Of a stretch of DNA of 64,000 nucleotides, positions 18,003-58,589 are shown one piece after another. Made by a program: the position numbers and the translations under genes. A model generated the notes under the pieces. That model ran no database searches, was not told the origin of the DNA, and saw only the letters and a program-made list of their open reading frames with translations. Source of the stretch: Alphaproteobacteria bacterium (lineage in GTDB: Bacteria > Pseudomonadota > Alphaproteobacteria > UBA828); assembly GCA_965262755.1 (NCBI GenBank), contig OZ253557.1:718619-782618 (forward strand), in the 5' to 3' direction. The first letter of the stretch is position 1, and every line of letters starts with the position of its first letter.

Positions 18003-21000
18003 CTACCAGCGGATCGAGCCTCGGAGCATCAGGCCGTGTTGCGGTGCTTCGTCGGCGTTGGCGGCCTCGCTGCGCGTCGCATCGAGGTTGATCTCGAAGC
18101 CCGGGCCGCCGCGCCGCGCCGAGGTCAGACGCCAGCCGAGCCGGTAGTCGCGCCCGGTGTCCGAGAGCCCGACGCCGAGATGCGGGGTGCCGGTGAAGCC
18201 GCCGCTGAACATGGCGATGCCGTAGCCCAGCTCCGCCTCCAGACGGCCCGCGCTCGCGGTCGTGTCGCCGTTGTCGTTGGCGGCGAGGCCGTCCAGGGTC
18301 TCGCGGCCCAGCAGCGCGTCCATGCCGCCGGTTGGCGAGCCGCCCCAGGACTGGCGCAGCGTCAGCGCGAGCCCCCGGTCCGTCGACGGCCGCGGGTCCC
18401 AGGCGAGGGAGGCGCTCGCGCCCCATTCGCGGAAGCCCGGCGCCTGGTGGGCGACCAGCCCGCGCGCCTTCAGATCGAGCGCGATACCCTGCTTCGGCGC
18501 CGCGAAGGCGAGCCCGCCGCCGAGGTCGACGCCGAGCCCGGTCTCGGCGTCGCCGCCGTCCAGCCGGACCCCGATCTCGAACGACGGCGTCAGCACCAGC
18601 CCCGCGGCAGCGCCGCCGGGCGCGAAGCGCCGCGAGCCCTCGATCCCGGTACGCACCAGCCACACGTCGGCGGTCGCCGCCGCGAGGTTGCCGCCCTTGG
18701 CGTCCTTCGTGGCCTCCGACGCGGTCCGCGTGAGGCGCGCATCGCCCTTCAGCGCCAGCGCCAGCCCGCCCTCCGGCGGTGGCGTCAGCACCTCGCCCCG
18801 CATCCCGGCCGCGCCCATGGCCATCGTGAGATCGGCCGTGAAGGGGCCGTCCGTCTCGCCCCCGGGCGTCAGCGTGAGCGAGCCCGCGCCGTAGCCGGCC
18901 GCCGCCCAGGCCGTGAGCCGGTCGGTCAGCGTCAGCCCGGCATAGGGCCAGACACCGGTCAGCGTCGCCTCGACCTCGCCCGCGCAGCCGCTGGCCCCGT
19001 CGCCGCCGGCGCCGGCCGTGCAGTCGCCGCCCTCGCTGTAGCCGCCCGTGCCGCGGGCATGGCCGATCGCCAGCCCCGCCGTCCAGCGTCCTGCCCCGGA
19101 CCCCGATCCGGGGGCTGCCGCCCAGTCCGCGCCCATCAGCCCCGTGGTGACCTCGCCGTCGAGCGTGAGGTCGCCCTCGCGGCCGTCGAAGCGCGAGATC
19201 GCGCCCCGGCCCCACAGCGCGGCATAGCCGCCCGCCTCGGCCGAGCCGCCGGTCAGCGCGAACGACGTCCCGGTCAGGAAGTCGCGCCCGGTCAGCTCCC
19301 GCGACTGCACGAGGTCCGCGCGCTGCGAACCCTCGCCCGGAGCACGCCATGCGCCATCGGCCCCGGCATGCGCCATCCAGTCCCGGATCGCCGTCATCGC
19401 CTCCCGGTCCCGGGCATCGGCCCGGAGCGCCCGGTCCGAAGCGTCGGCGTTGTCGCCGGCGGCGGCCTTCGCGGTGTCGTTGGCGCCGTCCCAGGACGGC
19501 AGCGCCTGGCCCGCCAGCGTCGCCCGAACGCCCGCCGTGCGCGGCGCGGCCAGCCGCGCCTCCACCACACTCAGCACCTGGTCCGTCACCGTGCGCCCGA
19601 ACCGCGCCAGCCACGCCGCCGGCATGTGGTCCGTGTTCTCGATCGTCCCCGTCGCGACCCCGTCCGCGATCACCGCACCCGTCGCCGCCGAGAGCCGCAG
19701 CGTCAGCGTCTCCTCGCCCTCGTCATGGGCGTCGTCGAGCACCGGCACCGAGACCGTCTTCGCCGTCTCGCCGGTCGCGAAGCTGAGCGTCCCGCTCGTG
19801 GCCGTGTAGTCCGAGCCCGCCGTCGCGCTGCCGTCGGCCGTCGCATAGGCCACCGACACCGGCGCGCGCGACGCCCGGCTCAAGGTCACCGCGAAGTCCA
19901 GCGTCACGTCCGACGCCTCGCGCACACGCGCATCCGCCACCGAGAGCGCCACCGGTCCCAGCACCGTCGTCGAGATCGTCGCCGACAGCGCCCGGCCGTC
20001 GCCGGTGCACACCGCCCCGGCCGTGCCGCAGGCGCGCCCGCCCGCGAGCGTCACCGTCACGTCGCCAAGCGAACCCGGCTTGACCGTCACCTTCCACAGG
20101 TCCTTGCGCCGGTCCACCCGATTGGCGTTCTTCACGCTCCCGCCGGACACCGACAACGACTGGTCGCGGAACGTCCGGAAGCCGATCGAGATGCCCTCGC
20201 TGAACGCGATCCTGAGCTTGAACGCCGTCTCCCCGTCATGCTCATGGGGCGCCTCCACGAAACTCGCCGTCAGCACCGCGGGCGCGTCCTCGTCCACCGG
20301 GCCGGCCACCGTCGCCGTCGCCGTGTTGGTCAACTGCCTACGGTCCCCGCCCCGGGTGCAGATCGCCCCGGAGACCGCGCACTCGCGCCCCGCCGCCAGC
20401 GTGACCGTCACATCGCCCTCGCCGTCGGGCTCGACCGTGATCCGCCACAGGTCGTGGCGCCGGTCCACCCGGCGCGCCCCGGTCACCTCGCCCCCGTCCA
20501 CCGTGAACGAATCGTCGCGCATCGACCGGAAGCCGATCCCGATCTCCTCGCTGAACGCCACCCGGAAGTGGAACCCTTCCTCGCCGTCATGCGCCTCAGG
20601 CAGGCCCTCGAAGCTCGCCGTCAGCGCCGGCTCGGTCTCGGGACCCGGGCCGGGCACGATGTGCGCCGGCACCACCGACAGGGCTCGGCCGTCCGATGTG
20701 CAGACCGCGCCCTCCGCCTCGCAATCCTCCGTCCGGGCCAGAGCGATCGACAGATCCTCGCGGCTGTCCGGCGTGACCGTGATCTCCCACACGCCGCTCT
20801 CCCCGTCGACGCGGGCCGCGCCGGTCGCCGCGCCGCCCGCCACCGTCAGGACGCGCGTACGCATGGCCTCGGGCGTGACCGCGACCGCCTCGCTGAACCC
20901 GAGGCGGAAGCTGAACGCGGTCTCCCCGTCGTGCGCCTCCGGCAGCCCCTCGAACGCCGCCGTCAGCGGCTCCGCAACGGCCGCCATGGAGCTCCCCGAC

Positions 21001-24000
21001 TCGTTCCAGCAGCGTACCCCCGCATCCTCGCCGTGCGAGCAGTTGTGCAGCCCCCAGCCCGCGTGCCCGCAGTGAGCCAACGGCGCCGGCAGCGCGCCCA
21101 CCGTCAGGTTGGCTTCGCCCGCCACGCACGTCATGTCGTCGACCCAGATGGGCAGCGGTCCATGCGCCGGGTAGGGGACGTCCGCCGAGTAGTAGGTCAT
21201 CTGCGGCCCGGACGTTTGGCTCTCCCCCGGCTGGCCGAAGCCCGACGCGTATTCGCCGGTGTCGTAGCCCATGGACTGGCAGACCAGGGCGGGCGCATCG
21301 TTGGCGGGTTCAGTTTCCGTGAAGGTGCCCGTTGGGTCGCCGTCCGCATCCAGGTCCGGGACGAACCTGAAGGTATTCTCCTTCGAGAAGCCGTCGCTGC
21401 ACACCGTGCCCCAGCGCTCGGCGTGGAATATCTCCACACGTCCCGCGACCCCCTCATACCCATCCGGGTGCGTGTACGGTTCCTCGTCCGTCAAGCGCAG
21501 ATCGCCCTCGACGCCCGCGTCCACGGCGCGGCGCGTCACCGTCACCGTGTAGGTCCGGGTGGTGATACCGTCCTCGGCCGTCACCTTCACCTTGATGACG
21601 TTGTCGTCCTCCTCCAGCGTCACCTGAGGGACGGTATCCGAGGTGTCGGCGTCGGTGAGCGTCACGTCGTCCCCGTCGAAATATCCGATCGTCGCCGCGG
21701 CATGGGTCGTCGTCGGCGTCACCGTCACCTCGGCGACGGCGTTCGCCACCGACCCCGTGTAGGCGGTGGTGCCCGGCGCGAAGAACGGGCTCAGCGGCAC
21801 CTCCGAACTGCCGTAGGTGACGACCAGCGCGCTCAGCGTCGCGTCCGTCGAGGTCACGCGCCGCGAGCCGTCCACCTTGTTGCCGGACAGCGCGCCGAGC
21901 TCGGCATGGGTGAGATCCGCCGCCACGGTCGTGGCCACGCTCGCGATCGTGCCGTTCTGGGGGTTCGAGTTGCGGTCGCCGACCAGCGTCCGGTCCTGGT
22001 CCCCGATCCAGATGCCGTCGTCGTCGCTGTCCCCGGTCTGCACGGTGTAGCCGAACACCAGCGTCGCCGTGCCCGAACCGCGCAGCAGCGGCGCGCGCTT
22101 GGCCCCACCGACGGACAGCACGAAGTCCGTGCCGGTCGTGGCGGTCACGGGCTCGTTGAAGATCACCGAGACCTCGATCGTCTCGCCCTCCCCGTAGGTG
22201 TCCGGCGTCGACCCGACCGACGAGGTCAGCAGCGGCGTCGACGTCACCGCCACGTCGTCGATCGTCGGCGGGGTCAGGATGGCGCTCGGCGTCACCGGCC
22301 CGTCCTCCGCGGCCGTGCTATTGCCGTCGGCGCTCACCGCGCGCAGCTCGAACGTGTAGGCCGTGCCGCCGGTCAGCCCCGTCACCGTGAAGCTGGCCTC
22401 GTTGGCCTCGCCCGGCGCGCTGTCGGCGATCTGCTTCCAGTCGTCGAGATACTCCCCGCTCGTCTTGTACTGGTACTCGTGGCGCGTCACCCCCGAACCC
22501 GACGCCGGCGCGTCCCAGGTAAGCGCCACCTGCAACTCGCCGGCCGTGGCCCTGAAATTGGTCGGCTCGTCCGGGCCCGGCCGCGCCACCCCGGAATCGT
22601 TCTTCACCGCGGGAACGCCGTCCTCGCCGGTGGTGAAGGAATCGGCGTCGTCACCGTCGCTGTCCTGGATGGCGGCCGCGTCGTCGCCGGAGGTCGGGTC
22701 GGTGTAGGTAACGGTGACGGTCTGACCCCGGTATATGACGCGATCCAAGCTTAGAAACTGGATCCGATCCGGAGTGAGGGTCGTGAGCACGATGCTGCCC
22801 ACCACGATGGACGCGCCGTCGACGCTGACCGAGAAGGCGCTCGCGGGTGGCCTAGCTGCCGCCGAACTGTCCAGGTTCTCGCTAAAGTCCAGCGCAATTC
22901 GGTCGCCGCCGAAGCCCGCCACCGCACTGCTGAGCGTCGGCGGGTCGATCGTGGTGGCGTCGGCGGTGCCGGACGCCACCGACGGGCCCCCGACGTTGAT
23001 CGCCGAAACCCGGTAGTGCCGCGTGTCGCCGGGCGAAAGCCCGGTATGCGAATAGAAGGTGTCGGTATTGCCGGTGTCGGCGACGAGGTCGTCCCAGTCC
23101 GTGCCGCCGTCCTCGGAGACCTCGATCCTGTAGCCGGTGATGGCGGAGCCGCCGTCCGACGGCGCGTCCCAGGTGAGGTCGATCTGCGTGGTCCCGCTGG
23201 CCTCGGCCACGAGGTTCGCGGGCTGGCCCGGGACCCCCAGCCGCAGCCGCAGCGTGACGTAGGGATCCGACGACCAGTCCAGGCCGGTGCGCTCCCAATT
23301 GTAGGTATTGAAAACACTTGGACCGGTCGCAGCGCTGAGCGCGAACGAGGCGCTGCCGACATGCAACACCAGTCTCGCCTTGTCGGCAGCGCTGAGCGCG
23401 CTGGTCAGGTCGAAGAACAACTTGCCGGCATTGGCGCCCGTTCCAGTCCAAACACCATCAATCGTGTAGCCGTCGAATGTCTTGTCGGACAGGTTGCCTT
23501 GAGCTGGAGCGGTTAAGAAAGGTGGAATGAATCCGTAGATTCCAGAATCTCTATTCCCCACCGTCACCACGCCGCACCATCTGTCGCCGGTGTTCAGCGT
23601 GCAGCTCGTGGCCGTGGTGCCGGAGACCACATCGGAGGCATCCGAGGTGCCCACGGCGTTGATCGCCGAAACCCGGTAGTGCCGCGTGGAGCCGGGCGCA
23701 AGCCCGGTATGCGGATAGCGCGTGTCGTCGTTGCCGGTGTCGGCGACGAGGTCGGTCCAGTTCGTACCGCCGTCCGTCGAGACCTCGATCTTGTAGCCGG
23801 TGATGGCGGAGCCGCCGTCCGACGCCGGCGCGGTCCAGGAAAGGTCGATCCGCGCGTCGCCGCTCGCCGACGCCTCCAGCCCGGTCGGCTTGCCCGGTGC
23901 GGTGCGCAGCACCGTCGAATTGTTCGCCGCCGCCCGAATGCCGTCCTCGCCGCTTGTGAAGGATTGGTATTTGTTGCCGTCCTTGTCCACGAGGCCGGCG

Positions 24001-26438
24001 GCGCTGTCGTAGCTCACGACGACGGCCTGGTCCTTGTAGATCGGGGTGGGCAAGGTGACGTCCAGAATGTTATCGCTGGCCCCCTGCATGATGCCCGTTA
24101 TCTGGCGTTCGACGCCGTCGGCGGTGACCGTGAAGGCCGCGACCGCCGCGGCCGACAGCGTCCCTGTGCCGGACGGGAATTGGGCTTCAAACTGGAGCAC
24201 GACGGTCGTTCCAATCGTCTGCACCGTCGCAACCCTAAGCGTGGGGAGTTCGCGGGTCACGGTCACGGTGTAGGTCTTCTCCGTCATCCCGTCCGGCGCC
24301 GTCACCTTCACCTTGACGGTGTTCGGGCCCACCGCCGTGGCCACCTGATGGCCTTGGGCGAGGACCGACGTGCCTGTGGTGGCGTCCTCCAGCTCCATGT
24401 CGTCCCCGTCGAAATAAGCCACCGTCGCGTCGGCATGGTTCACGGCCGGCATGAACGTGACCTGATTCTTGGTGAACGCCAGCGACACGCTGTACATCTC
24501 GATTCCGGGATCGAACGCCGGGGACAGGTCGACAGTCTCCAACGCAGTCTGGTCAAAATTCCGGACGCTAAAGATCAGCCCGCTCAGGGTCGCGTCGGCC
24601 GACAGCTGGGTCGAATCGTTGTCGACCGCGGGCACCCCGCTCGCGCCGGTGGTGAAGTCGACGACCTCGTTGCCGGCGGCGTCGTCGAGGGCATTCGTGC
24701 CGGCGGCGGACCGGTCGTAGCTGACGACGACGGCCTGGTCCTTCAGGATCCTGGACGACAGGGCGATCTGCAGGCCGCTGCTGCCGGCCGCCGCCAGGCC
24801 CGCAATCTCCACCGTGTCGCCGGCGGCGGTGACCGAGAAGGCATCCTTGAGCGCCGCCGGGATGGTCGCCGGAAGGTCGAGGTCCTCGCCGAAAGCGAGT
24901 TCGATGGCAACGCCGGACGACGCCACCGTCGCGCCGGTGAGCTCGGGCGTGTAGTCCACCTCCGTGTACGCCAGCCGCACGTCGACGGTGTCGCCCAAGT
25001 GCCAGGTCAGGCCATCGCGGTTGAACTCGAAGGACGTCTTGGTGCGCGGGTTATTAAAGGAAAAAGACCTGCTGCCGAGGTAGAGTTTAAAGTTGTTGCC
25101 GCCGAAGAAGCCGTCGGCGGGCTCGGAGCCCGGGACCTGAAGATAGAAATGCAGTTTGTTGTTGCTGAAGCCGTAGGCGAGACGGAGGAGGTACGCAGTA
25201 TTGGAGCGGTACTGGAAGCTGGACGGGTCGATGTCCCCGACCGTGGAGCCCGCTATGAACCGGTATCCGGTGATCGGATCGCCGACACCGGTGCTGCCCT
25301 TGCCGACTGTGAGGGTGGAACTCCAGGTCACGGTGCCGTCGATGGTGTCGGGGGCCGCGTGATGGGAGGGCGGGTCGGTGGTGGCGTTGGCGGTGCCGGA
25401 GGCCGAGGACGTACCGATCGAGGTGATGGTGGACACCCGGTAGTGCCGGGTGGAGGAAGGGTTGAGTCCTCCGTCGGAGTAGCGGGTGTTGCTATTGCCT
25501 GTATCGGCTTTGACGGTGAACCAGTTCGTGCTGCCGTCCCTCGAGGCCTCGATCTTGTAGCCTGTGATGGGCCGCCCGCCTGTGTCCACCGGGGCTGTCC
25601 AGTTCAGGTTGATGCCCGCCTTGCCGTTGGCCGCGGCTGACAGGCCGGTCGGCGGATCGGGGTTGACGGGGTCGGCGTCCGAGTTGTTCAACATCTCCAC
25701 GTTGGCGAACGAGGCGGCGTCGTTGCCGGCCTCGTCCTGGATGGCGATGGTGTCGTCGCCAGGGCTCGGATCGGTGTAGGAGACGGTGACGGTCTGGCCC
25801 TTGCGGATAAGGGGATCCAAGTTGCTTAGCTTGAGCTGGTTGTCATCGACCGCAAAGCTGGCACCCATGCGCGGGTGCGCATGGCCGTCGACTTTGAGGA
25901 TGACCTCCGAGCTGCGCAAGGTAATGCTAAGGTCCTCGGAGAAGGTGAGCGTGACCCCGTTGCCGCCGGACCAGACAAAGCCTCCCTCAAGAGTGGGCGG
26001 GGTGATGTCCTGCGCGTTCACCTCAGCGGCGAAGGCGAGGGCTCCGGCCAGCGACAGGCACGCGGCAGCGGCCAGCGCACGGGCGGACCGGACGAGCCCG
26101 CGCCGCGCGCCGCCGAGGCGCGCGAGACCCGCCGGCCGGGCGGCGGCGGAATAGGTCTTTGAGGAAGGAGAGCCGCCCCGGCGGGGCGGCAGGCGGTCAG
26201 GCGGCGATGGCGGGTCGGCTTGCTCCCGCGGCCGAGGCGCAGTCATGGCCTCGGCGCTCGGCGCTCGGCGCTCGGCGCTCGGCGCTCGGCGCTCGGCGCT
26301 CGGCGCTCGGCGCTCTATATTAAGGGTCGCACAGACAGCTTCCAACCACTTCGCACAATTCGATACCATTGCCGCGCCGCTCCCGGTTCGCGCCAGCCAA
26401 GTCCCCAGCGGTGGCGATGGCCATGGCAGCACCGCCAA
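18003..26438 (-). CDS. giant autotransporter-like adhesin: SwmB-like repeats, FN3 repeats, cadherin-like beta-sandwiches, SRCR, 3 Cys-containing Ig-like repeats, Calx-beta, C-terminal beta-barrel
   Basis: FN3 (LSWTAP..GGSAITGYKIEVS..TRHYRVSAIN), VSYTDP...DAAGN repeats, KVTAEDGITTRTYTVTVTR, GRVEIFH..WGTVC..NCSHGEDAGVRC, ATADGSATAGSDY, terminal ...GSIRW. Start may be 26246. Confidence 0.92.
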   Translation of the reverse strand: MAVLPWPSPPLGTWLARTGSGAAMVSNCAKWLEAVCATLNIERRAPSAERRAPSAERRAPSAEAMTAPRPREQADPPSPPDRLPPRRGGSPSSKTYSAAARPAGLARLGGARRGLVRSARALAAAACLSLAGALAFAAEVNAQDITPPTLEGGFVWSGGNGVTLTFSEDLSITLRSSEVILKVDGHAHPRMGASFAVDDNQLKLSNLDPLIRKGQTVTVSYTDPSPGDDTIAIQDEAGNDAASFANVEMLNNSDADPVNPDPPTGLSAAANGKAGINLNWTAPVDTGGRPITGYKIEASRDGSTNWFTVKADTGNSNTRYSDGGLNPSSTRHYRVSTITSIGTSSASGTANATTDPPSHHAAPDTIDGTVTWSSTLTVGKGSTGVGDPITGYRFIAGSTVGDIDPSSFQYRSNTAYLLRLAYGFSNNKLHFYLQVPGSEPADGFFGGNNFKLYLGSRSFSFNNPRTKTSFEFNRDGLTWHLGDTVDVRLAYTEVDYTPELTGATVASSGVAIELAFGEDLDLPATIPAALKDAFSVTAAGDTVEIAGLAAAGSSGLQIALSSRILKDQAVVVSYDRSAAGTNALDDAAGNEVVDFTTGASGVPAVDNDSTQLSADATLSGLIFSVRNFDQTALETVDLSPAFDPGIEMYSVSLAFTKNQVTFMPAVNHADATVAYFDGDDMELEDATTGTSVLAQGHQVATAVGPNTVKVKVTAPDGMTEKTYTVTVTRELPTLRVATVQTIGTTVVLQFEAQFPSGTGTLSAAAVAAFTVTADGVERQITGIMQGASDNILDVTLPTPIYKDQAVVVSYDSAAGLVDKDGNKYQSFTSGEDGIRAAANNSTVLRTAPGKPTGLEASASGDARIDLSWTAPASDGGSAITGYKIEVSTDGGTNWTDLVADTGNDDTRYPHTGLAPGSTRHYRVSAINAVGTSDASDVVSGTTATSCTLNTGDRWCGVVTVGNRDSGIYGFIPPFLTAPAQGNLSDKTFDGYTIDGVWTGTGANAGKLFFDLTSALSAADKARLVLHVGSASFALSAATGPSVFNTYNWERTGLDWSSDPYVTLRLRLGVPGQPANLVAEASGTTQIDLTWDAPSDGGSAITGYRIEVSEDGGTDWDDLVADTGNTDTFYSHTGLSPGDTRHYRVSAINVGGPSVASGTADATTIDPPTLSSAVAGFGGDRIALDFSENLDSSAAARPPASAFSVSVDGASIVVGSIVLTTLTPDRIQFLSLDRVIYRGQTVTVTYTDPTSGDDAAAIQDSDGDDADSFTTGEDGVPAVKNDSGVARPGPDEPTNFRATAGELQVALTWDAPASGSGVTRHEYQYKTSGEYLDDWKQIADSAPGEANEASFTVTGLTGGTAYTFELRAVSADGNSTAAEDGPVTPSAILTPPTIDDVAVTSTPLLTSSVGSTPDTYGEGETIEVSVIFNEPVTATTGTDFVLSVGGAKRAPLLRGSGTATLVFGYTVQTGDSDDDGIWIGDQDRTLVGDRNSNPQNGTIASVATTVAADLTHAELGALSGNKVDGSRRVTSTDATLSALVVTYGSSEVPLSPFFAPGTTAYTGSVANAVAEVTVTPTTTHAAATIGYFDGDDVTLTDADTSDTVPQVTLEEDDNVIKVKVTAEDGITTRTYTVTVTRRAVDAGVEGDLRLTDEEPYTHPDGYEGVAGRVEIFHAERWGTVCSDGFSKENTFRFVPDLDADGDPTGTFTETEPANDAPALVCQSMGYDTGEYASGFGQPGESQTSGPQMTYYSADVPYPAHGPLPIWVDDMTCVAGEANLTVGALPAPLAHCGHAGWGLHNCSHGEDAGVRCWNESGSSMAAVAEPLTAAFEGLPEAHDGETAFSFRLGFSEAVAVTPEAMRTRVLTVAGGAATGAARVDGESGVWEITVTPDSREDLSIALARTEDCEAEGAVCTSDGRALSVVPAHIVPGPGPETEPALTASFEGLPEAHDGEEGFHFRVAFSEEIGIGFRSMRDDSFTVDGGEVTGARRVDRRHDLWRITVEPDGEGDVTVTLAAGRECAVSGAICTRGGDRRQLTNTATATVAGPVDEDAPAVLTASFVEAPHEHDGETAFKLRIAFSEGISIGFRTFRDQSLSVSGGSVKNANRVDRRKDLWKVTVKPGSLGDVTVTLAGGRACGTAGAVCTGDGRALSATISTTVLGPVALSVADARVREASDVTLDFAVTLSRASRAPVSVAYATADGSATAGSDYTATSGTLSFATGETAKTVSVPVLDDAHDEGEETLTLRLSAATGAVIADGVATGTIENTDHMPAAWLARFGRTVTDQVLSVVEARLAAPRTAGVRATLAGQALPSWDGANDTAKAAAGDNADASDRALRADARDREAMTAIRDWMAHAGADGAWRAPGEGSQRADLVQSRELTGRDFLTGTSFALTGGSAEAGGYAALWGRGAISRFDGREGDLTLDGEVTTGLMGADWAAAPGSGSGAGRWTAGLAIGHARGTGGYSEGGDCTAGAGGDGASGCAGEVEATLTGVWPYAGLTLTDRLTAWAAAGYGAGSLTLTPGGETDGPFTADLTMAMGAAGMRGEVLTPPPEGGLALALKGDARLTRTASEATKDAKGGNLAAATADVWLVRTGIEGSRRFAPGGAAAGLVLTPSFEIGVRLDGGDAETGLGVDLGGGLAFAAPKQGIALDLKARGLVAHQAPGFREWGASASLAWDPRPSTDRGLALTLRQSWGGSPTGGMDALLGRETLDGLAANDNGDTTASAGRLEAELGYGIAMFSGGFTGTPHLGVGLSDTGRDYRLGWRLTSARRGGPGFEINLDATRSEAANADEAPQHGLMLRGSIRW
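26253..26315. repeat. tandem heptamer (GGCGCTC)x9
   Basis: Nine perfect copies, 63 bp, encoding ERRAPSA repeats in the adhesin N-terminus. Confidence 0.97.
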
Positions 26439-49636: not shown

Positions 49637-51334
49637 CTAGAGCTGCCAGTCGCGCAGGTCGGCCTCGGCCAGTTCCTCGATCGGGTCGAGCAACTCCGAC
49701 GTCGCGGCCCCCTTCAGCGCCCAGATCAGCAGGTCGGAGAGCGGGAAGTCGATGGCGTCGTCGGCGACCTTTTCGACGATTTTCTCCAGCCGGTCCTTCA
49801 GCCGATCGCGGATCTGCCGGGCCGTGAGCTTGCCGCGCGGCCATGGCATAGCGCCGTCCGGCTGCCGCGCCCGGCCAACCAGCGGGATCAGTGGCAGGAA
49901 GCCGTCGCCGGCTTCCTGGCCGAAGGCCTGCTTCTGTGCGTCGGTCCAGCGCCCGACGAAGATCGGGTTAGTCTCGGCCAGCGCCAACTCCTCGGCCAGG
50001 TGGGTGCGGCAGTTGGCACGGCCCAGCATGTAGTCGTGGCGCCGGTACTCGTCCTCGAAGAAGCCGAGGAAGGCGCTGAGGCCGGCAGTGGCCAGCGCCT
50101 TCTCGCCGCTGATGGTGCCGCGCTGCGGGATCGCCAGGTAGCGCGAGAACACGTCTGGATCGGCCATCAGCAGCAGGTCGGTGGTGGCGTAGCGGCCCTG
50201 GCTCACCAAGCTGGACAGCACCGCCCCGCCCAGCTTCACCAAGCTCTCGAAACGGTCCGGTCCGAGCTGCCCGGTGCCCGGCAACGGGTCGATCAGCATC
50301 ACGCCGCGGTTCGCCTCGGCGCGGTCGCGCGGGTTCCGGCCGGTGACGCCGGCCAGGAACGTGCGTGCCAGCTCGATCGGCTCGTTGTTGAAGGTGCCGC
50401 CATCGACCGACAGGAAGGCATATTCGTCGCCAACGCCGCTGCCGGTCCAGTCGGGGCGTAGCGGTGCCACCTTCACCTGGCCGTCGTCGCCGGGAACGAC
50501 GGCGACGCGGTAGTCGTAGTGCGTACGCGGCCGGCGTAGCCCGACCGCCGGGAAGCCGAGCGGGAAGGCGCCGCTGGCACGCGCGTAGCTGGCGAGCGTC
50601 AACCAGTTGACCGCCGGCGCCTGGCCACCGTCCTGCACGAAGAACTCGTCCGGTCGCAGGCCGCCGGGCACGCCGCCGCCGGCGCCGATGTCGCAGGCGA
50701 AGCGGGCGTGGTCGGCGTGGAAGCGGTAGCTCTGCCGGCCGAGGTGGCCGAAGTCGATTTCGTACGGTACGCCGGTGAGGTTGGCGAGCGTGACGATGAC
50801 GCGGAACGGGTTATCGACGTAGGGCCGCGCCAGCCAGCCAGCCGGCAGCGGACCGCCCTGGAAGGCCGCGGCCGCCTTCGTCGCCTGGCCGATCGCCTTG
50901 CCGTTGAACAGCGACTTCAGCGGCTGGCCGGCGGCGATGTCGTTGGTCTCGACGAAGCCGGCGATGTCCAGGTCCTGCACCCAGGTCTTGTAGAACGGGT
51001 TGCGGTCCCACTCGACCTCAGGCGAGGCCGGCGAGATGTGCGGGAAGCCGAAGGCCAGCGCGCGGGCAAGGATGGCGGCGCACACGCCGCCGCCGGACGC
51101 GCCGGCCGCGACGCGGAGCTTCACGTCGTGGCCGGGCACCTCTTCGTCGTTCGTCTTCGCCACGTACCAGGCGTCCAGCGCCTCGATGAGCTTGTCCAGG
51201 TATCCCGCCGTGTAGGCGCCGGCGGAGACCGTGCCGCCCAGCACCAGGGCGACCTCGAAGGTGCCGTCGGGCGGGCTCGGCGTGGCGTTGCTGTTCAGGA
51301 CCTGCAGGATCTCGTCGGCCGTCGGCATCGTCAT
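49637..51334 (-). CDS. patatin-like phospholipase
   Basis: LVLGGTVSAGAYTAG, GASGG nucleophile elbow, ASGAFP, DGG. Confidence 0.9.
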   Translation of the reverse strand: MTMPTADEILQVLNSNATPSPPDGTFEVALVLGGTVSAGAYTAGYLDKLIEALDAWYVAKTNDEEVPGHDVKLRVAAGASGGGVCAAILARALAFGFPHISPASPEVEWDRNPFYKTWVQDLDIAGFVETNDIAAGQPLKSLFNGKAIGQATKAAAAFQGGPLPAGWLARPYVDNPFRVIVTLANLTGVPYEIDFGHLGRQSYRFHADHARFACDIGAGGGVPGGLRPDEFFVQDGGQAPAVNWLTLASYARASGAFPLGFPAVGLRRPRTHYDYRVAVVPGDDGQVKVAPLRPDWTGSGVGDEYAFLSVDGGTFNNEPIELARTFLAGVTGRNPRDRAEANRGVMLIDPLPGTGQLGPDRFESLVKLGGAVLSSLVSQGRYATTDLLLMADPDVFSRYLAIPQRGTISGEKALATAGLSAFLGFFEDEYRRHDYMLGRANCRTHLAEELALAETNPIFVGRWTDAQKQAFGQEAGDGFLPLIPLVGRARQPDGAMPWPRGKLTARQIRDRLKDRLEKIVEKVADDAIDFPLSDLLIWALKGAATSELLDPIEELAEADLRDWQL

Positions 51335-51415
51335 TCCCCCTTCGCTGCGTACCGCCAACTCTACATTAGCCGACATTCCCCGGATGACCGCCGGTTTCAG
51401 CCGTGATGGTAACCG

Positions 51416-51641
51416 ATGGAATGGACGCCCCCTCCCGACGGCATCGAATCGTGCCAAGGTGGCGGTGGCATCAACGCCACGACGAAGGAGGAGGCGTCCA
51501 TGGATCAGGTTAGCATCATCGGGATTGATCTCGCGAAGCACAGTTTTCAGTTGCACGGCGCGCTGGATGACGGGTCCGTCGCATTCCGCAAGAAGCTGAG
51601 CCGCGGGAAGGTGCTCGACTTCCTCGCCTCTCAGCCGCCCT
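51416..51641 (+). pseudogene. IS110/IS1111-family left end and transposase N-terminal fragment
   Basis: ATGGAATGGACGCCCC end; MDQVSIIGIDLAKHSFQLHG...RKKLSR from 51500. Confidence 0.85.
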
Positions 51642-51803
51642 TCCGTAATGGGGCGTTTGCCGTCAAGCGCGTTTTTTTCATCAGCGATCGCCGCGATCCT
51701 AATTTCGGCTCGCGGACCAAGGTGTTGATCGGCATCGTCGTGTGACCCCTCGGTATCTAAGAGAATCAACACGTTGCCGCGCCGATCACCGTCCAATGTG
51801 CGT

Positions 51804-52041
51804 GCTCTTGAGTAACAGATGCCTAAGCGATTGACAGCATTGGGTTTTGCGTTTCGTCGTTTTGCGGTGCCGGGACGAGTTGGAGCCCGAGTTTTCGGGC
51901 TTAACATCGGGTGCCGCTACAGCACGCCAGTGCGCGAACGGCCTCTTCACCCCACCCGCAGCCACTTCAAGCCCGAGGCGTCGCAGACACAAGCCCCCGT
52001 TACTCCCGCGACCGAGCCGGAGCGACGCGCAGGTGGAAGCT
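51804..52041 (-). mobile_element. mini-IS110 (internally deleted derivative) in tandem with the full element
   Basis: 51804-51902 resembles 52039-52137; 51898-52041 matches 53605-53748 with 4 substitutions; fused at GGCTT. Confidence 0.88.
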
Positions 52042-52057
52042 CTTGAGTAACAGGTGC

Positions 52058-53476
52058 CTAAGCGATTGACAGCATTGGGTTCTGTTTTTCCTCTCCTTGC
52101 ATTTTCGGGACGAGTTGGAGCCCGAGTTTTCGGGCTTGGCGGTCGAGATGAGCGAACTTTCTGTTGAGGCGCCGCTTCTCGTAGGCGTCGATGCCCTGCT
52201 CGACGTATTTCTGGCCTTCGGTCACCATGAGGTAGATCAGGCAGGCGAGTTCGCGGGCGGTCGCCTTGATCGCAACGGGGGTGTCCATTCGGGCGAGCCT
52301 TGCGCGGTGCTTGGCGCCGATGAAGGTCTCGCTGCGGCGCGCGGCCATGGCCGCCATGCGCAGGGCCTGCCCGACGGGGTTGACCGCCTTCGGCGACTTG
52401 CCGGGGAGGTTCTTGCCGCCGCTGATCCTGGTTCCCGGCGCGAGCGCAAGCCAGGAGCAGAAGTGCTGGGCGGAGGGGAAGGCGGAGAAGTCCGGGCCGA
52501 TCTCCGAGGCGATCACCAGTGCGGTACCGGGACCGATGGTGGGGATCGCGGTGAGGTCGACGCCCATCATTCCGCGCAACGCCAGGGCCTGGATGCCCTC
52601 CTTGCCGGTGTAGTTGCTTGCGGCGTTCGCAGAGCGGCTCGACGCGGTTTCGGAGGTCGTGCCGGGGGCAGGGTCCGGCGCGCCGCCGTCCGGGAGATCG
52701 TCCGGCGGTGCCAGGCGCTCGATCTCGGCCATCACCCGGACCTCGCAGTCGTCGATCTGCTGGGTCAGGAAGTCGTAGCGCTGCATGGCCTGTTCGAGGG
52801 CGAAGAGGTGCTCCTCGCGCCACGTCCCCTGAAGGCTCGCGGCGATCGTATCGGCGTCGGCCTTGATGCCCCGGTGGCGGAGCGTCGCCAGGCGCTCTGG
52901 GTCACGCTCGCCGTCGATGATCGCGCGCAGGATGCGCTGGCCGGTCAGTCCCGTGATGTTGGCGATCACCGAGTCGAGCTTGACGTTCATCTCGGTCAGC
53001 GCCTTCTGCATGTGCAGGACGCAGCGGGAGCGGTCCCTGGTCAGCCGCCTCATCTGGCGTGCGTAGGAGCGCAGCGGGCAAACCTCGTCGCCCGGACGGA
53101 ACGCTCCCCGCAGCAGGCCGTAGGACATCAGCTGCCAGATCCACTGGCAGTCCAGCACGTCGCTCTTGCGCCCGCCGATCTGCTTCGTCATGCGCGGCGG
53201 CACCAGCATCACCTCGAAGCCCGCGCGCTCCAGCGTCTCGTAGACCGGGATCCAGTAGACCGAGGTCGACTCCATCGCGACCTTGGTCACCCCGCACGAC
53301 GCCAGCCACGCCGCCATCTCCTCCAGATCGCGGGTAAAGGAGCCGAACGAACGCACCGGCTCATCGCTGCGTTCCGGGTCGACCGCCACGAAATGCCGGT
53401 CCTTGCCGATGTCGATCCCTGCGCAGTCCGGGTTCACCACCCTGAGGCGCCGGGTTCTTCGAGACTTGCGCGCCAT
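52058..53476 (-). CDS. IS110-family DEDD recombinase/transposase
   Basis: GIDIG, MESTS, KSDVLD, IPTIG, LAPGTRISGG, ATARELA. Confidence 0.96.
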   Translation of the reverse strand: MARKSRRTRRLRVVNPDCAGIDIGKDRHFVAVDPERSDEPVRSFGSFTRDLEEMAAWLASCGVTKVAMESTSVYWIPVYETLERAGFEVMLVPPRMTKQIGGRKSDVLDCQWIWQLMSYGLLRGAFRPGDEVCPLRSYARQMRRLTRDRSRCVLHMQKALTEMNVKLDSVIANITGLTGQRILRAIIDGERDPERLATLRHRGIKADADTIAASLQGTWREEHLFALEQAMQRYDFLTQQIDDCEVRVMAEIERLAPPDDLPDGGAPDPAPGTTSETASSRSANAASNYTGKEGIQALALRGMMGVDLTAIPTIGPGTALVIASEIGPDFSAFPSAQHFCSWLALAPGTRISGGKNLPGKSPKAVNPVGQALRMAAMAARRSETFIGAKHRARLARMDTPVAIKATARELACLIYLMVTEGQKYVEQGIDAYEKRRLNRKFAHLDRQARKLGLQLVPKMQGEEKQNPMLSIA

Positions 53477-53489
53477 GGAACATCCTCCC

Positions 53490-53700
53490 AGGTTTCATCT
53501 CCGTCGCGAGTGGGGAGGAACCATGTTCGAAGTCCCATTCTCTTGAACGAGGTCACGGGAAACCCGCGCCATCAGTGACCGAGGCGACAAAATGGTTCGG
53601 ACCAGGCTTAACATCGGGTGCCGCTACAGCACGCCAGTGCTCGAACGGCCTCTTCACCCCACCCGCAGCCAGTTCAAGCCCGAGGCGTCGCAGACACAAG
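53490..53700 (-). ncRNA. putative IS110 bridge RNA
   Basis: Structured non-coding end with target-matching segments at 53628-53634 and 53606-53613 and a donor-matching segment at 53540-53546. Transcript ends are approximate. Confidence 0.7.
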
Positions 53701-53907
53701 CCCCCGTTACTCCCGCGACCGAGCCGGAGCGCCGCGCAGGTGGAGGCTTAACAACACCCTGACTCTACCCAAGGAAGACCAATGAATGTGTCTTGAATAA
53801 GAATCTCAACTCAGGAAGGCGAACGCCATCTATCCACTGAAGTGAATCTCTTCATTGATTGACCCAGATGCTCAAATTTGCAATTTTATGTACGAACACT
53901 TTTCCCT

Positions 53908-54450
53908 CTATTTTGGCCTGCTAATGTCTTCGAAGAACTCCACCGTACAGTTGATCAAATCCGCTCGCTTCTGCACTAAAGATGAGCTGGCTGGCGCTTG
54001 TTGACTACTAGCGTCAGATCCGTCGCACAGATAGCCGCCATTCTTCCTGTCATCGCACACCGCGTGGACATTGAGCTGCATACTCAACGTCCTGTTATCC
54101 TCATCAATACGAAGGCATCCGGGATACATCTGGGCCAACTTGACTGGAAACCTCGGCTTTTGCTCGATCACAGTAGTAATGTCACAAATACGCAATTGCG
54201 CTGCGGCGCCTTCCAGCGTCCAGCAATCCGGTATTAGCGTTTGATCCTTCATCCACTTCAGACTGCCGCGAGCACAACGATCACCAGGATGGACATCCAC
54301 CGATACCAATTTATCTTCGAAATACCAATCTACTACCTTAGTAATTCCTCCTAATCCAACAAAGCCAACGATCCAAACAAGAATCTTAAAGACCAAGTGC
54401 AGCCGTCCATACCATTTGAGAGCACTACGGAAATTATTCCCGGCGTTCAC
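53908..54450 (-). CDS. low-GC membrane-anchored Cys-rich hypothetical protein
   Basis: N-terminal TM segment and several Cys; GGGAG upstream. Confidence 0.65.
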   Translation of the reverse strand: MNAGNNFRSALKWYGRLHLVFKILVWIVGFVGLGGITKVVDWYFEDKLVSVDVHPGDRCARGSLKWMKDQTLIPDCWTLEGAAAQLRICDITTVIEQKPRFPVKLAQMYPGCLRIDEDNRTLSMQLNVHAVCDDRKNGGYLCDGSDASSQQAPASSSLVQKRADLINCTVEFFEDISRPK

Positions 54451-54480
54451 AGCACGGCGCTCCCTAATACACGTTCTGCA

Positions 54481-55104
54481 TTAGCGGACAGCCCAGTGCA
54501 GCTGTTCACGCAGGTAGTATACAAGGAAATAGTCGAAATCAAACCTGAGAGTAAGCCAGCCGTTCGGATGCACGCCGCATCCGAACCTACCCTCTCCAAT
54601 AAGCTTTCCATCCCCTGGGTAATCGCTCGCGACGAACTTCCTCATGCATGAGTTCAAAACTTCCTCGCCTCTAGCAAGGGTCTCACTAATTTCACTTGCA
54701 AGCTCTTCTCGAGGAATATCGTTGAATTCCCTCAGCACAGCAGCTCCTTGACCCCACATCGTCCACTGATTAAAGTGCTCACTAAACATTCTTGCGAGCG
54801 CGCCATTGGCTTGGCTCTCTGTGAGATTCTTGAGCATTTCGTCAAACTGCAGCTCGCTCTGCGACGCAGTGGTAGACTCAAGAGATTCGATGTCAAACGT
54901 GCACCAGTCACGCTCTTCATCAGTAATCAGGAAGCACTTGGCGGCGTTTGTCACCTCAGCGCCGTCCTCATTGTCGTTCAATTCTTCGAGATCGCACTTG
55001 CATTTTTCTTTTGTTGCGCCCGCATCGGCTGAAGCCGGAAAAATCAAAAGTCCCAGCAGCACCGCAAGCAGGAAGGGGCACAATGCATGCCTCTTTGTGT
55101 ACAT
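54481..55104 (-). CDS. low-GC exported Cys-rich hypothetical protein
   Basis: GGAGG RBS; signal peptide ...LLIFPASADA. Confidence 0.75.
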   Translation of the reverse strand: MYTKRHALCPFLLAVLLGLLIFPASADAGATKEKCKCDLEELNDNEDGAEVTNAAKCFLITDEERDWCTFDIESLESTTASQSELQFDEMLKNLTESQANGALARMFSEHFNQWTMWGQGAAVLREFNDIPREELASEISETLARGEEVLNSCMRKFVASDYPGDGKLIGEGRFGCGVHPNGWLTLRFDFDYFLVYYLREQLHWAVR

Positions 55105-55464
55105 CTTACTATCCTCCAGTTGTCGAAACTCCCGGTTAACTTTCCACTCAGTTAAGAACAGGGATGCAAGCGCCAACTTGGTATACTAACACATGTCAAA
55201 TGTTCCGATTGAAAGTGTTCGTTCTCTAGCAAAGAAGTTTTTTCAAGAATTAGTCTTGTGCGTACTGGACGTGGCGAATAGAGCGGTTCTAGTGAAGCCG
55301 TGCAATAGCGGTAGGTTCCTCTGCGCTAGCGAGATGAACTCGCGCCACACGATATTTGAAGATAGGCGTATACCATTGTGGTTTTTGGAATATCAGTTTC
55401 CAACGGACTGGTCAAGAAATCGGCTGTTGTGGGTGACGTACGCGATTATGTGTCAGGCGGGAAA

Positions 55465-57941: not shown

Positions 57942-58033
57942 TGTTGACCGGCGTCCAATGTTGACCCCTCATAGTCGCGTGATATCAACATGTTAGTGTG
58001 CCGATCGGCGTCGAATCGGCGCGCCGATCAACA
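57942..58033. mobile_element. 92-bp IS21-like-ended MITE, copy 4 (inverted relative to copies 1-2)
   Basis: TGTTGACCGGCG...CGCCGATCAACA, 92 bp; IHF consensus TATCAACATGTTA. Confidence 0.85.
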
Positions 58034-58589
58034 ATGTGACGTCGGGGGGCGCAGTCGCTGCTCCATGGATCGGGTCCCGTGATGGAGGTGCAACACACCC
58101 GCCATCCAGCCGTGCTGGCCCTGGCGGGCCTTCTCTCGCTCGCCGTCGGGATCGGGATCGGGCGCTTCGCCTACCTTATGGGTCTCCGACAGGATGCAAA
58201 CCGGCGTGTATCATCGGCCGCAACTGTCCGGTTTGTGGCCACTTGACGCCGACGTACCCGGGACCATTCGAAGGACAAGCGCACCCTTGTCACCCACACC
58301 CGCGAAGACGGCAGATCATCGCCGGGAGGCTTGACGGCCTTGGTCGTCGCTTCGAAAACGACTGTCCAGGGCGCACTCGGCGCGAATACCTCGACCGCCA
58401 TTTCCCGCTCGGCAGGGGGGGCCGGCTTCGACGCGTCCATGCTCGCGCCCACCCGGTGCCGGCGCCGACCCGGTTCTGCCGCCAGCGCACCCGCACCGGC
58501 AGCGTCGCCCGGCCTTCGGGCGAGGACCCGGCGCCGTTCCAGGCGCTGGAAAACGGGGTGCACCAAGCGGCGCAGGTGCGCAGCGGACG

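Follow-up and report, generated by a model that had tools for sequence, protein, structure and literature searches.

The window analysed here is a stretch of 64,000 nucleotides from the genome of an Alphaproteobacteria bacterium (contig OZ253557.1, positions 718,619 to 782,618) and forms part of a single contig of 6.17 Mb. Within it, a 92-bp intergenic repeat is interrupted by two forms of one IS110-family insertion sequence (IS) lying head-to-tail: a mini derivative, which including its CT occupies 235 bp (51807–52041), and a full element of 1705 bp with its transposase gene on the - strand (Table 1). The dinucleotide CT flanks the full IS on each side (52040–41 and 53747–48), and excision of both elements recreates GCGTG-CT-TAACAACAC, the end of the 92-bp unit that starts at 51723. 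A preliminary description of this DNA had claimed that removal of the tandem restores such a target within the terminal repeat of a third repeat copy, and the sequence agrees. The mini derivative is composed of approximately 96 nt of the right end (51807–51899) fused to the last 142 nt of the left end (51902–52039), with the internal junction reading TTCGGG-CT-TAACA (51894–51906).

The product of the transposase gene carries the Pfam domains PF01548 (DEDD_Tnp_IS110, E 9e-22) and PF02371 (Transposase_20, E 9.6e-13), scores 263.9 bits against a cutoff of 140 with the NCBIfam model NF033542, 'IS110 family RNA-guided transposase' (E 2e-78), and is distantly similar to the transposase of IS621 (8wt6_A, E 7.4e-8). 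The alignment to IS621 covers GIDxxK and ExT, and the translation shows SDVLDC and a serine-rich GTRISGG stretch, which are candidates for the catalytic D-E-D-D and serine residues. CT is present at all junctions, and no inverted repeat longer than 7 nt connects the IS ends. Protein and junctions alike place the element in the IS110 family; the encoded enzyme is predicted to be a DEDD/serine RNA-guided recombinase, in keeping with the preliminary description. Non-coding sequence comprises 270 nt upstream of the gene and 16 nt after the stop codon, which is not the downstream RNA of the IS1111 group. A tblastn search of plasmids returned generic 'IS110 family transposase' names only (best identity 49%) and gave no placement in the IS110 or IS1111 subgroup by name.

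The interrupted repeat belongs to a sizeable family. The genome contains 35 units with the exact 7-mer ends TGTTGTT...AACAACA, of which 33 measure 91–92 bp. A strict pattern for the repeat yielded 29 matches in the genome, with none for a reversed control, and found matches in 13 of the 18 same-genus genomes searched and in one of 12 others. Three congeners (G003, G011 and G017) have the repeat and no match to the IS, which identifies the repeat as the more widespread partner; within the genus the family occurs more widely than the IS and appears to predate it. Terminal inverted repeats that pair, a small uniform size and many copies are the hallmarks of a MITE, a miniature transposable element with inverted repeats; the term serves here as a description of the 92-bp repeat. 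No target-site duplication was seen in the flanks examined, and Rfam gave nothing for the repeat copies at 400–2600. The sequence at most repeat ends is TGTTGTTCGGCG. The IS inserts at the variant form TGTTGTTAAGC, whichever end of the unit bears it, and its preferred natural site, ...GCGYG-CT-TAACAACA, is a variant of the terminal inverted repeat. Both ends are used despite differing adjacent sequence, with no common stem-loop evident. Within the window, repeat copy 2 (2380–2474) carries GCGGG-CT-TAACA, one mismatch from the site restored in copy 3, and the site is absent from copy 1 (529–623) and copy 4 (about 57946–58036), all as the preliminary description had it.

A BLAST census of the element against the genome revealed 47 full-length copies, 40 of them at 100% and seven at 99.94% identity, alongside partial copies (truncated at query position 1567 in four cases and at 1479 in one), mini copies of 235 bp (five, of 96–100% identity) and a single relative that is 78% identical. 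Because there are 47 full copies, 40 of which are identical, the IS appears to have been active recently. The matches fall into 35 arrays. At least one full copy is present in 29, and in 12 of these 29 there are two to five full copies head-to-tail with a period of 1707 (the element plus CT). At three junctions (2233257, 3074303 and 4337671) the core is doubled to CTCT, and in several relatives (L034, L037, L040, L051, L056, L059 and L060) runs of (AG)n, up to approximately 30 nt long, frequently come directly after the right IS end; recombination would seem to repeat the core dinucleotide.

Tandem junctions account for 18 of the 56 right ends. Among the 38 that remain, 27 read CT-TAACAACA, the repeat end, so that the flanks of other genomic copies bear out what had been anticipated from the single insertion in the window. 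Five more read CT-TAACATCGGG, a sequence that the element itself contains internally (53607–53618); these internal-site insertions show the flanks GGACCAGG-CT and CT-TAACATCGGG, and the copies truncated at position 1567 point to this internal site as well. The rest comprise TAACAGCA, TAACTGGA, TGACAGG and TTACAGC (one each), one aberrant end and one end belonging to the 78% relative. For 18 of the 35 arrays, the far terminal repeat was located at the expected position, -84, give or take one base and with no more than one mismatch. Across the genome, therefore, the terminal repeat of the 92-bp family is by far the predominant location of the IS.

The two sides of the target are not alike. The four bases that precede CT are CGCG at 11 of the 28 occupied repeat-end sites, CGTG at 7, CACG at 4, ATCG and GACG at 2 each, and AAAG and GAGG at 1 each, and across all left flanks the only constant base is the G directly before CT. 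This variability runs counter to the earlier claim that the left target is specified. CT-TAACAACA occurs at 65 sites, of which 28 are occupied, and GCTTAACA occurs at 128. The latter comprise 50 internal guide-coding sites that are intact, 34 right junctions of inserted copies, of which two have a variant left end, one mini-element junction, 35 unoccupied repeat ends and eight sites elsewhere.

In the element of the window, TGTTAAGC lies at 53613–53606 and TCAAGAG at 53546–53540, both on the - strand and both where the preliminary description had placed them; by chance they are expected 0.003 and 0.011 times, respectively, per 270 nt of one strand. Relatives were drawn from many metagenome-assembled genomes, with records labelled Alpha- and Gammaproteobacteria, Binatia and other groups, and comprise 79 related loci of 56–96% protein identity. 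The guide tests used 72 loci (of 81, seven were left out because the segments could not be recognised in them and two because of insufficient window length).

The segment that contains TGTTAAGC, UGUUAAG(C) or AUGUUAAG, corresponds to a variable stretch on the 3' strand of a first internal loop. In nearly every type this stretch repeats the flank abutting the left end, followed by AG: UGUUA-AG in the present element is replaced in relatives by CUGCA, CCCAU, UUGGA, UCUGG, UUCUG, GCAGG, AUAAG and others. The 78% relative, a single-copy second member of the clade in this genome (G000:C1:1321252-1322833), has CUUGAAG in place of UGUUAAG and is inserted at GCTTGA-AG-AGAGG, outside any 92-bp repeat. 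Likewise, the copies of one relative (L011, L012 and L014–L020) share TTGGA-AG on one side, with one mismatch in L020, and nothing on the other. The correspondence was quantified with no definition of the boundary, by searching a 100-nt window around the left-end boundary for each of 22 variants. Of the 72 loci, 44 contained their own 7-mer there, and 7-mers belonging to the other 21 types turned up in 4 of 1512 tests. On the donor side, the 3' strand of a second loop repeats the right end plus AG (TCAAG, TCGAG, TCGGG, TTGAG, ATGAA, ATGGA, ATGAG and ATAAG, each with a matching right end), and 64 of the 72 loci contained their own 7-mer, while 7-mers of other types turned up in 6 of 576 tests. 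These data support a role for UGUUAAG(C) as a programmable target guide and for UCAAGAG as the donor guide, and the right-target and donor guides proposed in the preliminary description are thus confirmed at the level of covariation.

No equivalent was found for the left donor end, in agreement with the preliminary description, which had seen none by eye. Relatives differ in their left-end termini but hardly at all on the 5' strand of the donor loop, and covariation extends to one donor arm and not to both. Complementarity between the start of the left end and the segment before the first module was 5.84, against 5.94 for permuted pairings, and 1505 of 2000 permutations scored as high. In IS621 the position that follows the core complement of the guide is the handshake position; by eye, the base found there did not consistently track the second base of the left end. 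An 11-bp helix is peculiar to this element and does not generalise to relatives.

One further pair of segments varies in concert. GAGUAAC in the left end and GTTACTC in the right end form an inverted repeat of 6–7 nt, placed 35 nt inside the left end and 4 nt from the right one. For the single element, a repeat of this length is no more than chance would give (204 of 1000 shuffles were as good); across relatives the two sides covary (AGTAAC/GTTACT, AGTAAA/TTTACT, AGGAAC/GTTCC and GCAAAC/GTTTG). The pair is either a short subterminal inverted repeat or an extra guide for the opposite strand of the right end.

The structure of the left end was derived by RNAalifold and a count of pairs on the aligned left ends. 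Three helices emerged. The first, a basal stem (columns 19–22/68–71, GGCC/GGYC), is paired in 100% of cells, with two of its four pairs changed on both sides; the second, a distal hairpin (columns 34–40/51–56, UGG(C)GUG / CAC-CCG), is nearly invariant and paired in 98.9% of cells; the third, a second distal hairpin, occupies columns 99–107/120–128 and includes a pair (columns 106/121) that is GC 16 times and AU nine times. Together the 18 pairs of the three helices are paired in 99.4% of 540 cells, compared to 31–47% when the partner columns are slid, and in four pairs both sides have changed. If the other strand were read, several invariant U-G pairs would become A-C mismatches, which points to the transposase-sense strand. 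The basal stem of the donor part, AACCAUG/CAUGGUU, has compensated variants, among them AAUCAU/AUGAUU, GAUUGCG/CGCAAUC and CACGGU/ACCGUG. On this comparative evidence the left end is best described as two serial modules, each of basal stem, internal loop and distal hairpin, that make up a candidate bridge RNA. The left-end part of the mini derivative retains the first module as far as the target guide.

Table 1. Features of the interrupted repeat and its insertions; positions are those of the window.
Feature	Position	Strand	Remarks
Interrupted 92-bp repeat unit, left 84 nt ('MITE copy 3')	51723..51806		ends GCGTG + core CT (51805-51806); far terminal repeat TGTTGAT at -84 from array start, one mismatch to TGTTGTT
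Mini derivative of the IS	51807..52039	-	233 bp, followed by CT
Core dinucleotide CT, junction of mini and full IS	52040..52041		same sequence form as junctions of tandem full copies
Full IS110-family element	52042..53746	-	1705 bp; boundaries from flank comparison of genomic copies
Transposase gene	52058..53476	-	472 aa; residues 1-472 matched in full by many relatives
Left-end non-coding region encoding the candidate bridge RNA	53477..53746	-	from alignment of relatives
Putative target-binding module	53600..53650	-	basal stem GGCC (53650-53647) / GGUC (53603-53600) around internal loop and distal hairpin
Target loop 5' strand UUCGAG-CA, weak candidate left-target guide	53638..53645	-	variable among relatives
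Distal hairpin of target module, UGGCGUG ... CACCCG	53615..53636	-	contains GCGTGCT (53634-53628)
Target loop 3' strand AUGUUA-AG-C, putative target guide	53606..53614	-	complement of G-CT-TAACA; DNA form is the internal insertion site
Putative donor-binding module	53519..53597	-	basal stem AACCAU (53597-53592) / AUGGUU (53524-53519); distal hairpin 53574-53548
Putative donor guide UCAAG-AG	53540..53546	-	same sequence as right IS end + core
GAGUAAC, 5' part of left end	53706..53712	-	inverted repeat with GTTACTC at right end (52045-52051), covarying
Core CT (53747-53748) + TAACAACA	53747..53756		TAACAACA is the last 8 nt of the 92-bp repeat unit

The comparative structure bears directly on the model put forward in the preliminary description, namely an IS621-type RNA in which GCGUGCU is the left guide, UGUUAAGC the right guide and the full 12-nt site GCGTG-CT-TAACA the target. 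The model draws on the 7-nt identity of GCGTGCT (53634–53628) with left target plus core at one insertion, on the presence of CGTG before CT at 7 of the 28 occupied repeat-end sites, and on the order of the segments (same-sense 5', complementary 3'), which fits the consulted description of IS621. Against the model, GCGTGCT occupies alignment columns 36–42, four of which (36, 38, 39 and 40) are paired in the near-invariant distal stem; TGGCGTGC is present in 62 of 72 relatives and exact GCGTGCT in 28, irrespective of target and in loci whose targets are unrelated; the second element keeps GCGUGC with ACCTCT-CT as its flank; 21 of the 28 occupied sites lack CGTG; chance alone gives the match 0.038 times per 270 nt; and the two proposed guides would stand just 14 nt apart, with no room for an intervening hairpin. 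We therefore reject GCGUGCU as a guide and regard the two-armed, 12-nt model as very improbable. The preliminary description had named a position within paired stems as evidence against its segments: this applies to GCGTGCT, while the other two segments lie in loops. Folds of sub-windows, which placed GCGUGCU in a small alternative hairpin, are superseded by the comparative structure.

What, then, is the element, and how does it choose its sites? We propose that the left end, read in the transposase sense, would yield a bridge-RNA-like molecule with two modules. In the first, the 3' strand of the loop, AUGUUA-AG-C, would pair with the CT-containing target strand at G-CT-TAACA; in the second, the 3' strand UCAAG-AG would pair with the right IS end across the core. 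When CT is taken as the top strand, each 3'-strand guide is the reverse complement of CT and the arm to its right; the right-target and right-donor guides of IS621 have this form and occupy this place in their loops. These two arms would hold most of the specificity: UUCGAG-C would contribute at most weakly, the donor-loop 5' strand is invariant and GCGUGCU is a fixed hairpin. A half-site of approximately 8 nt would seem to suffice, the effective target being approximately G-CT-TAACA. A one-armed target would account for the variable left flanks, for stacking at the junction of an inserted copy (LD-CT-TAACA) and for hits on guide-coding DNA, because the right junction of each inserted copy and the guide-coding DNA itself would both stay targets, giving rise to arrays, to nested and truncated copies and to minis. 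An RNA-guided IS110 element in which one arm dominates the targeting of the 92-bp repeat end is, in our judgement, probably the right explanation overall. Production of the RNA and its binding by the recombinase are predicted, and half-site insertion as the builder of the arrays is what we infer from the junctions. The tandem arrays, the self-insertions and the half-site nature of the target go beyond the preliminary description.

Several observations weigh against this explanation and are gathered here. A first set concerns the RNA. When folded by itself, the left end gains no stability over shuffled sequences (z -0.09), a scan for sigma-70-type promoters was negative, and an Rfam scan of 51300–54200 gave chance-level matches or none. 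The left end is covered, at 90–99% identity, by contigs from four RNA libraries, drawn from as many studies; these contigs give neither ends nor strand and may derive from DNA. In addition, 28 of the 72 loci lack an exact match to their own target-guide 7-mer, although most of these are one-mismatch sites or tandem junctions.

The metatranscriptome contigs show a further feature: they break at 53546, in the donor-guide segment, and at 53608, at the internal core site. Two loci (L001 and L002) have a transposase that is 95–96% identical and a wholly different sequence upstream of TCAAGAG, and one loose contig end at 53546 matches sequence of the L001 type. Together these suggest exchange of modules at guide-coding DNA. 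In another locus (L013) a left-end segment of approximately 120 nt is apparently duplicated upstream of the transposase, with its junction at the AG of the target-guide coding site; this resembles the expansions of non-coding repeat units in the consulted part of a preprint on tandem IS110 modules.

A second set concerns the sites. Unoccupied half-sites are plentiful (37 CT-TAACAACA sites and 50 internal GCTTAACA sites), and repeat ends are occupied far more often than the eight other GCTTAACA sites, from which it follows that the half-site is not sufficient for saturation; something beyond the 8-mer, be it context or history, may contribute. The same preference could be taken to mean that the target is chosen by the protein or by DNA structure at the repeat end, with the RNA-like matches as by-products, for example remnants of earlier recombination. 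Such a mechanism has a precedent of sorts in the structural determinant that a preprint, in its consulted part, describes for the target of ISPpu10, and the RNA here is a candidate only. Against it, 22 guide variants match their own flanks, including those of relatives inserted in sequences unrelated to the repeat, both repeat ends are used though the adjacent sequences differ, and insertions also occur in non-repeat DNA with only G-CT-TAACA in common, the element's internal site. We give this alternative hardly any credence, and retain guidance by an RNA as the preferred explanation.

A third set concerns the left arm. The 5' strand of the target loop, UUCGAG-CA, matches the other flank at 1.81 of 4 positions, compared to 1.09 for permuted pairings, and none of 5000 permutations was as high (26 types, which are not independent). 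Close relatives that read UCGUGC or UCGCGC where the present element has UCGAGC are located at CGTG-CT and CGCG-CT repeat ends. This partial but significant match means that 'one-armed' may overstate the case. In several multi-copy relatives that lack a consensus in the flanks of that side the match is missing, and in the genome it does not separate occupied from unoccupied repeat ends (p 0.34).

Finally, the arrays themselves admit of another origin: homologous recombination of circles with resident copies, or unequal exchange, could make them, and the copy numbers across the arrays are those given by the assembly. The strongest competing account accepts guidance by RNA, has the left flank read by the 5' strand, and ascribes arrays, truncations and minis to homologous recombination, unequal crossing-over, deletion at GGCTT microhomology or, in part, assembly errors. 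Near-identical copies are an ample substrate for homologous recombination, the mini junction has 5 nt of microhomology (GGCTT), the 5' strand does match left flanks better than permuted pairings do, and the consulted part of the preprint on tandem duplication of IS110 modules leaves the mechanism open. Homology alone is, however, insufficient for what is found at internal sites. Insertions into the internal G-CT-TAACA have precise CT junctions, and some, such as the nested structure at 3791859–3795272, carry the displaced remainder (1563–1705) on the far side. At the mini junction the left side, TTCGGG-CT, agrees with UUCGAG-C at five of six positions and the right side is the guide site, which points to the recombinase and not to random deletion. 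Together with the failure of the 5' strand to tell occupied from unoccupied sites and the lack of consensus in many-copy relatives, this leads us to consider the account rather unlikely.

Other junctions are consistent with insertion and deletion by the recombinase at half-sites. At 4337671–4344358 a truncated and a full copy lie together with the displaced remainder missing; structures of this kind would fit a deletion between donor and internal target inside an array. At 5495405–5497346 a mini copy has received a full IS at its TTCGGG-CT-TAACA junction. The occupied junction of an inserted copy reads GGTGGAGG-CT-TAACA.

A wider claim can be entertained, namely that the clade of 79 related loci comprises natural 'one-armed' bridge recombinases, in which each loop would work essentially through a 3'-strand guide of 5–6 nt plus core, with the polarity of IS1111 seekRNAs combined with an upstream RNA, and with GAGUAAC as a third segment that reads the opposite strand of the right end. 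On this view every insertion would regenerate a usable target and the DNA template of the guide would be targeted as well; the expected products are tandem arrays, self-nesting and minis with only the target-binding module, and the 92-bp repeat would serve as a safe landing pad. We offer this tentatively, as a possibility against which we currently lean.

Other features of the window can be dealt with briefly. On the + strand, 51500–51640 encodes an N-terminal piece of another IS110-type transposase (MDQVSIIGIDLAKHSFQLHG...), a family call made by reading motifs, which ends just before the 92-bp repeat; Pfam gave no match for the 109-aa open reading frame at 51416–51745. To the right of the repeat end, from 53757 to 55200, composition shifts abruptly to AT-rich, with - strand open reading frames at 53908–54450 and 54481–55176, and this segment may be a foreign island bordered by repeat and IS. 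Long internal direct repeats with periods of approximately 340–350, 660–700 and 1320 nt (families D1–D7 and D9–D14) occur in 20000–26300, with a 14-nt tandem repeat at 26250–26322; all of these probably sit in a gene for a large repetitive protein.

The element is most readily compared to IS621. Common to both are a recombinase with DEDD and Tnp domains, an upstream non-coding RNA with target and donor loop modules, a CT core within the guides and a complementary guide on the 3' strand of each loop, as set out in the consulted sections of PMC11208160 and PMC11208158. The natural target is in both cases a multicopy intergenic repeat, which for IS621 is the repetitive extragenic palindromic (REP) sequence. 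There are also differences. The proteins are only distantly similar, as noted above. Here the CT core reads AG relative to the transposase gene, and what the 3'-strand guide reads is the flank that adjoins the left end; the gene points the other way relative to CT than in IS621, whose orientation we take to be the opposite. The 3'-strand guides are here long (5–6 nt plus core) and dominant, while in IS621, according to the consulted passages, the left guides measure 7 nt in addition to the core, with 4 nt for the native right-target guide.

Elements of the IS1111 group offer a second comparison. In the consulted part of PMC11187229, seekRNAs direct a member of the IS110 superfamily at the terminal inverted repeat of another mobile-type element, as appears to be the case here, and the guide order 'complement of top 5', complement of bottom 3'' is given for IS1111-type seekRNAs and not for the IS110-type ISEc21. 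The present element has the same order if top is the transposase sense, which we assume. A covarying subterminal inverted repeat may be a further likeness, although here it is 6–7 nt and asymmetric, whereas IS1111 subterminal repeats measure 7–17 bp; the non-coding region differs too, lying upstream as the 270-nt left end, with 16 nt after the stop codon. The element thus departs both from the full IS621 definition (two covarying arms per loop) and from that of IS1111 (a downstream RNA), and yet appears to work like a bridge or seekRNA system.

Targeting of multicopy repeats (REPs by IS621, ISPpu9 and ISPpu10) or of the inverted repeats of other transposons is already known. ISPpu9 and ISPpu10 of Pseudomonas putida likewise use a multicopy REP landing site and are associated with genome rearrangement; the consulted text gives the target of ISPpu10 a stem-loop as second determinant, whereas no common stem-loop is evident at the two repeat ends here. 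IS4321 and IS5075 reportedly target the terminal repeats of Tn21, in work attributed to Partridge and Hall (2003). Self-insertion into guide-coding DNA was not found in the literature searched, though the supplementary tables of predicted bridge RNAs of Durrant et al. may hold the architecture.

The closest parallel to the proposed mechanism is found in two preprints (10.64898/2026.08.31.748434 and 10.64898/2026.08.14.744561), the consulted parts of which describe half-match recombination, for which one arm plus core suffices, and tandem IS110 modules. Since both phenomena are reported elsewhere, the mechanism is plausible and not new. The difference is one of context: the half-match events are off-target products of a two-armed system, while here the natural preference looks one-armed, with junctions and guide template re-used. 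The 47 near-identical copies in one closed genome constitute a natural record of an RNA-guided IS with a half-site target, one that saturates its repeat family to the extent of 28 of 65 CT-TAACAACA sites, stacks, and attacks its own guide-coding DNA. For engineering, the relatives supply about 22 target-guide and eight donor-guide variants on one conserved scaffold. Set beside the two-armed systems, the element provides a natural test of recently proposed half-match recombination, and its long 3'-strand arm bears on the rules by which off-target activity is designed against.

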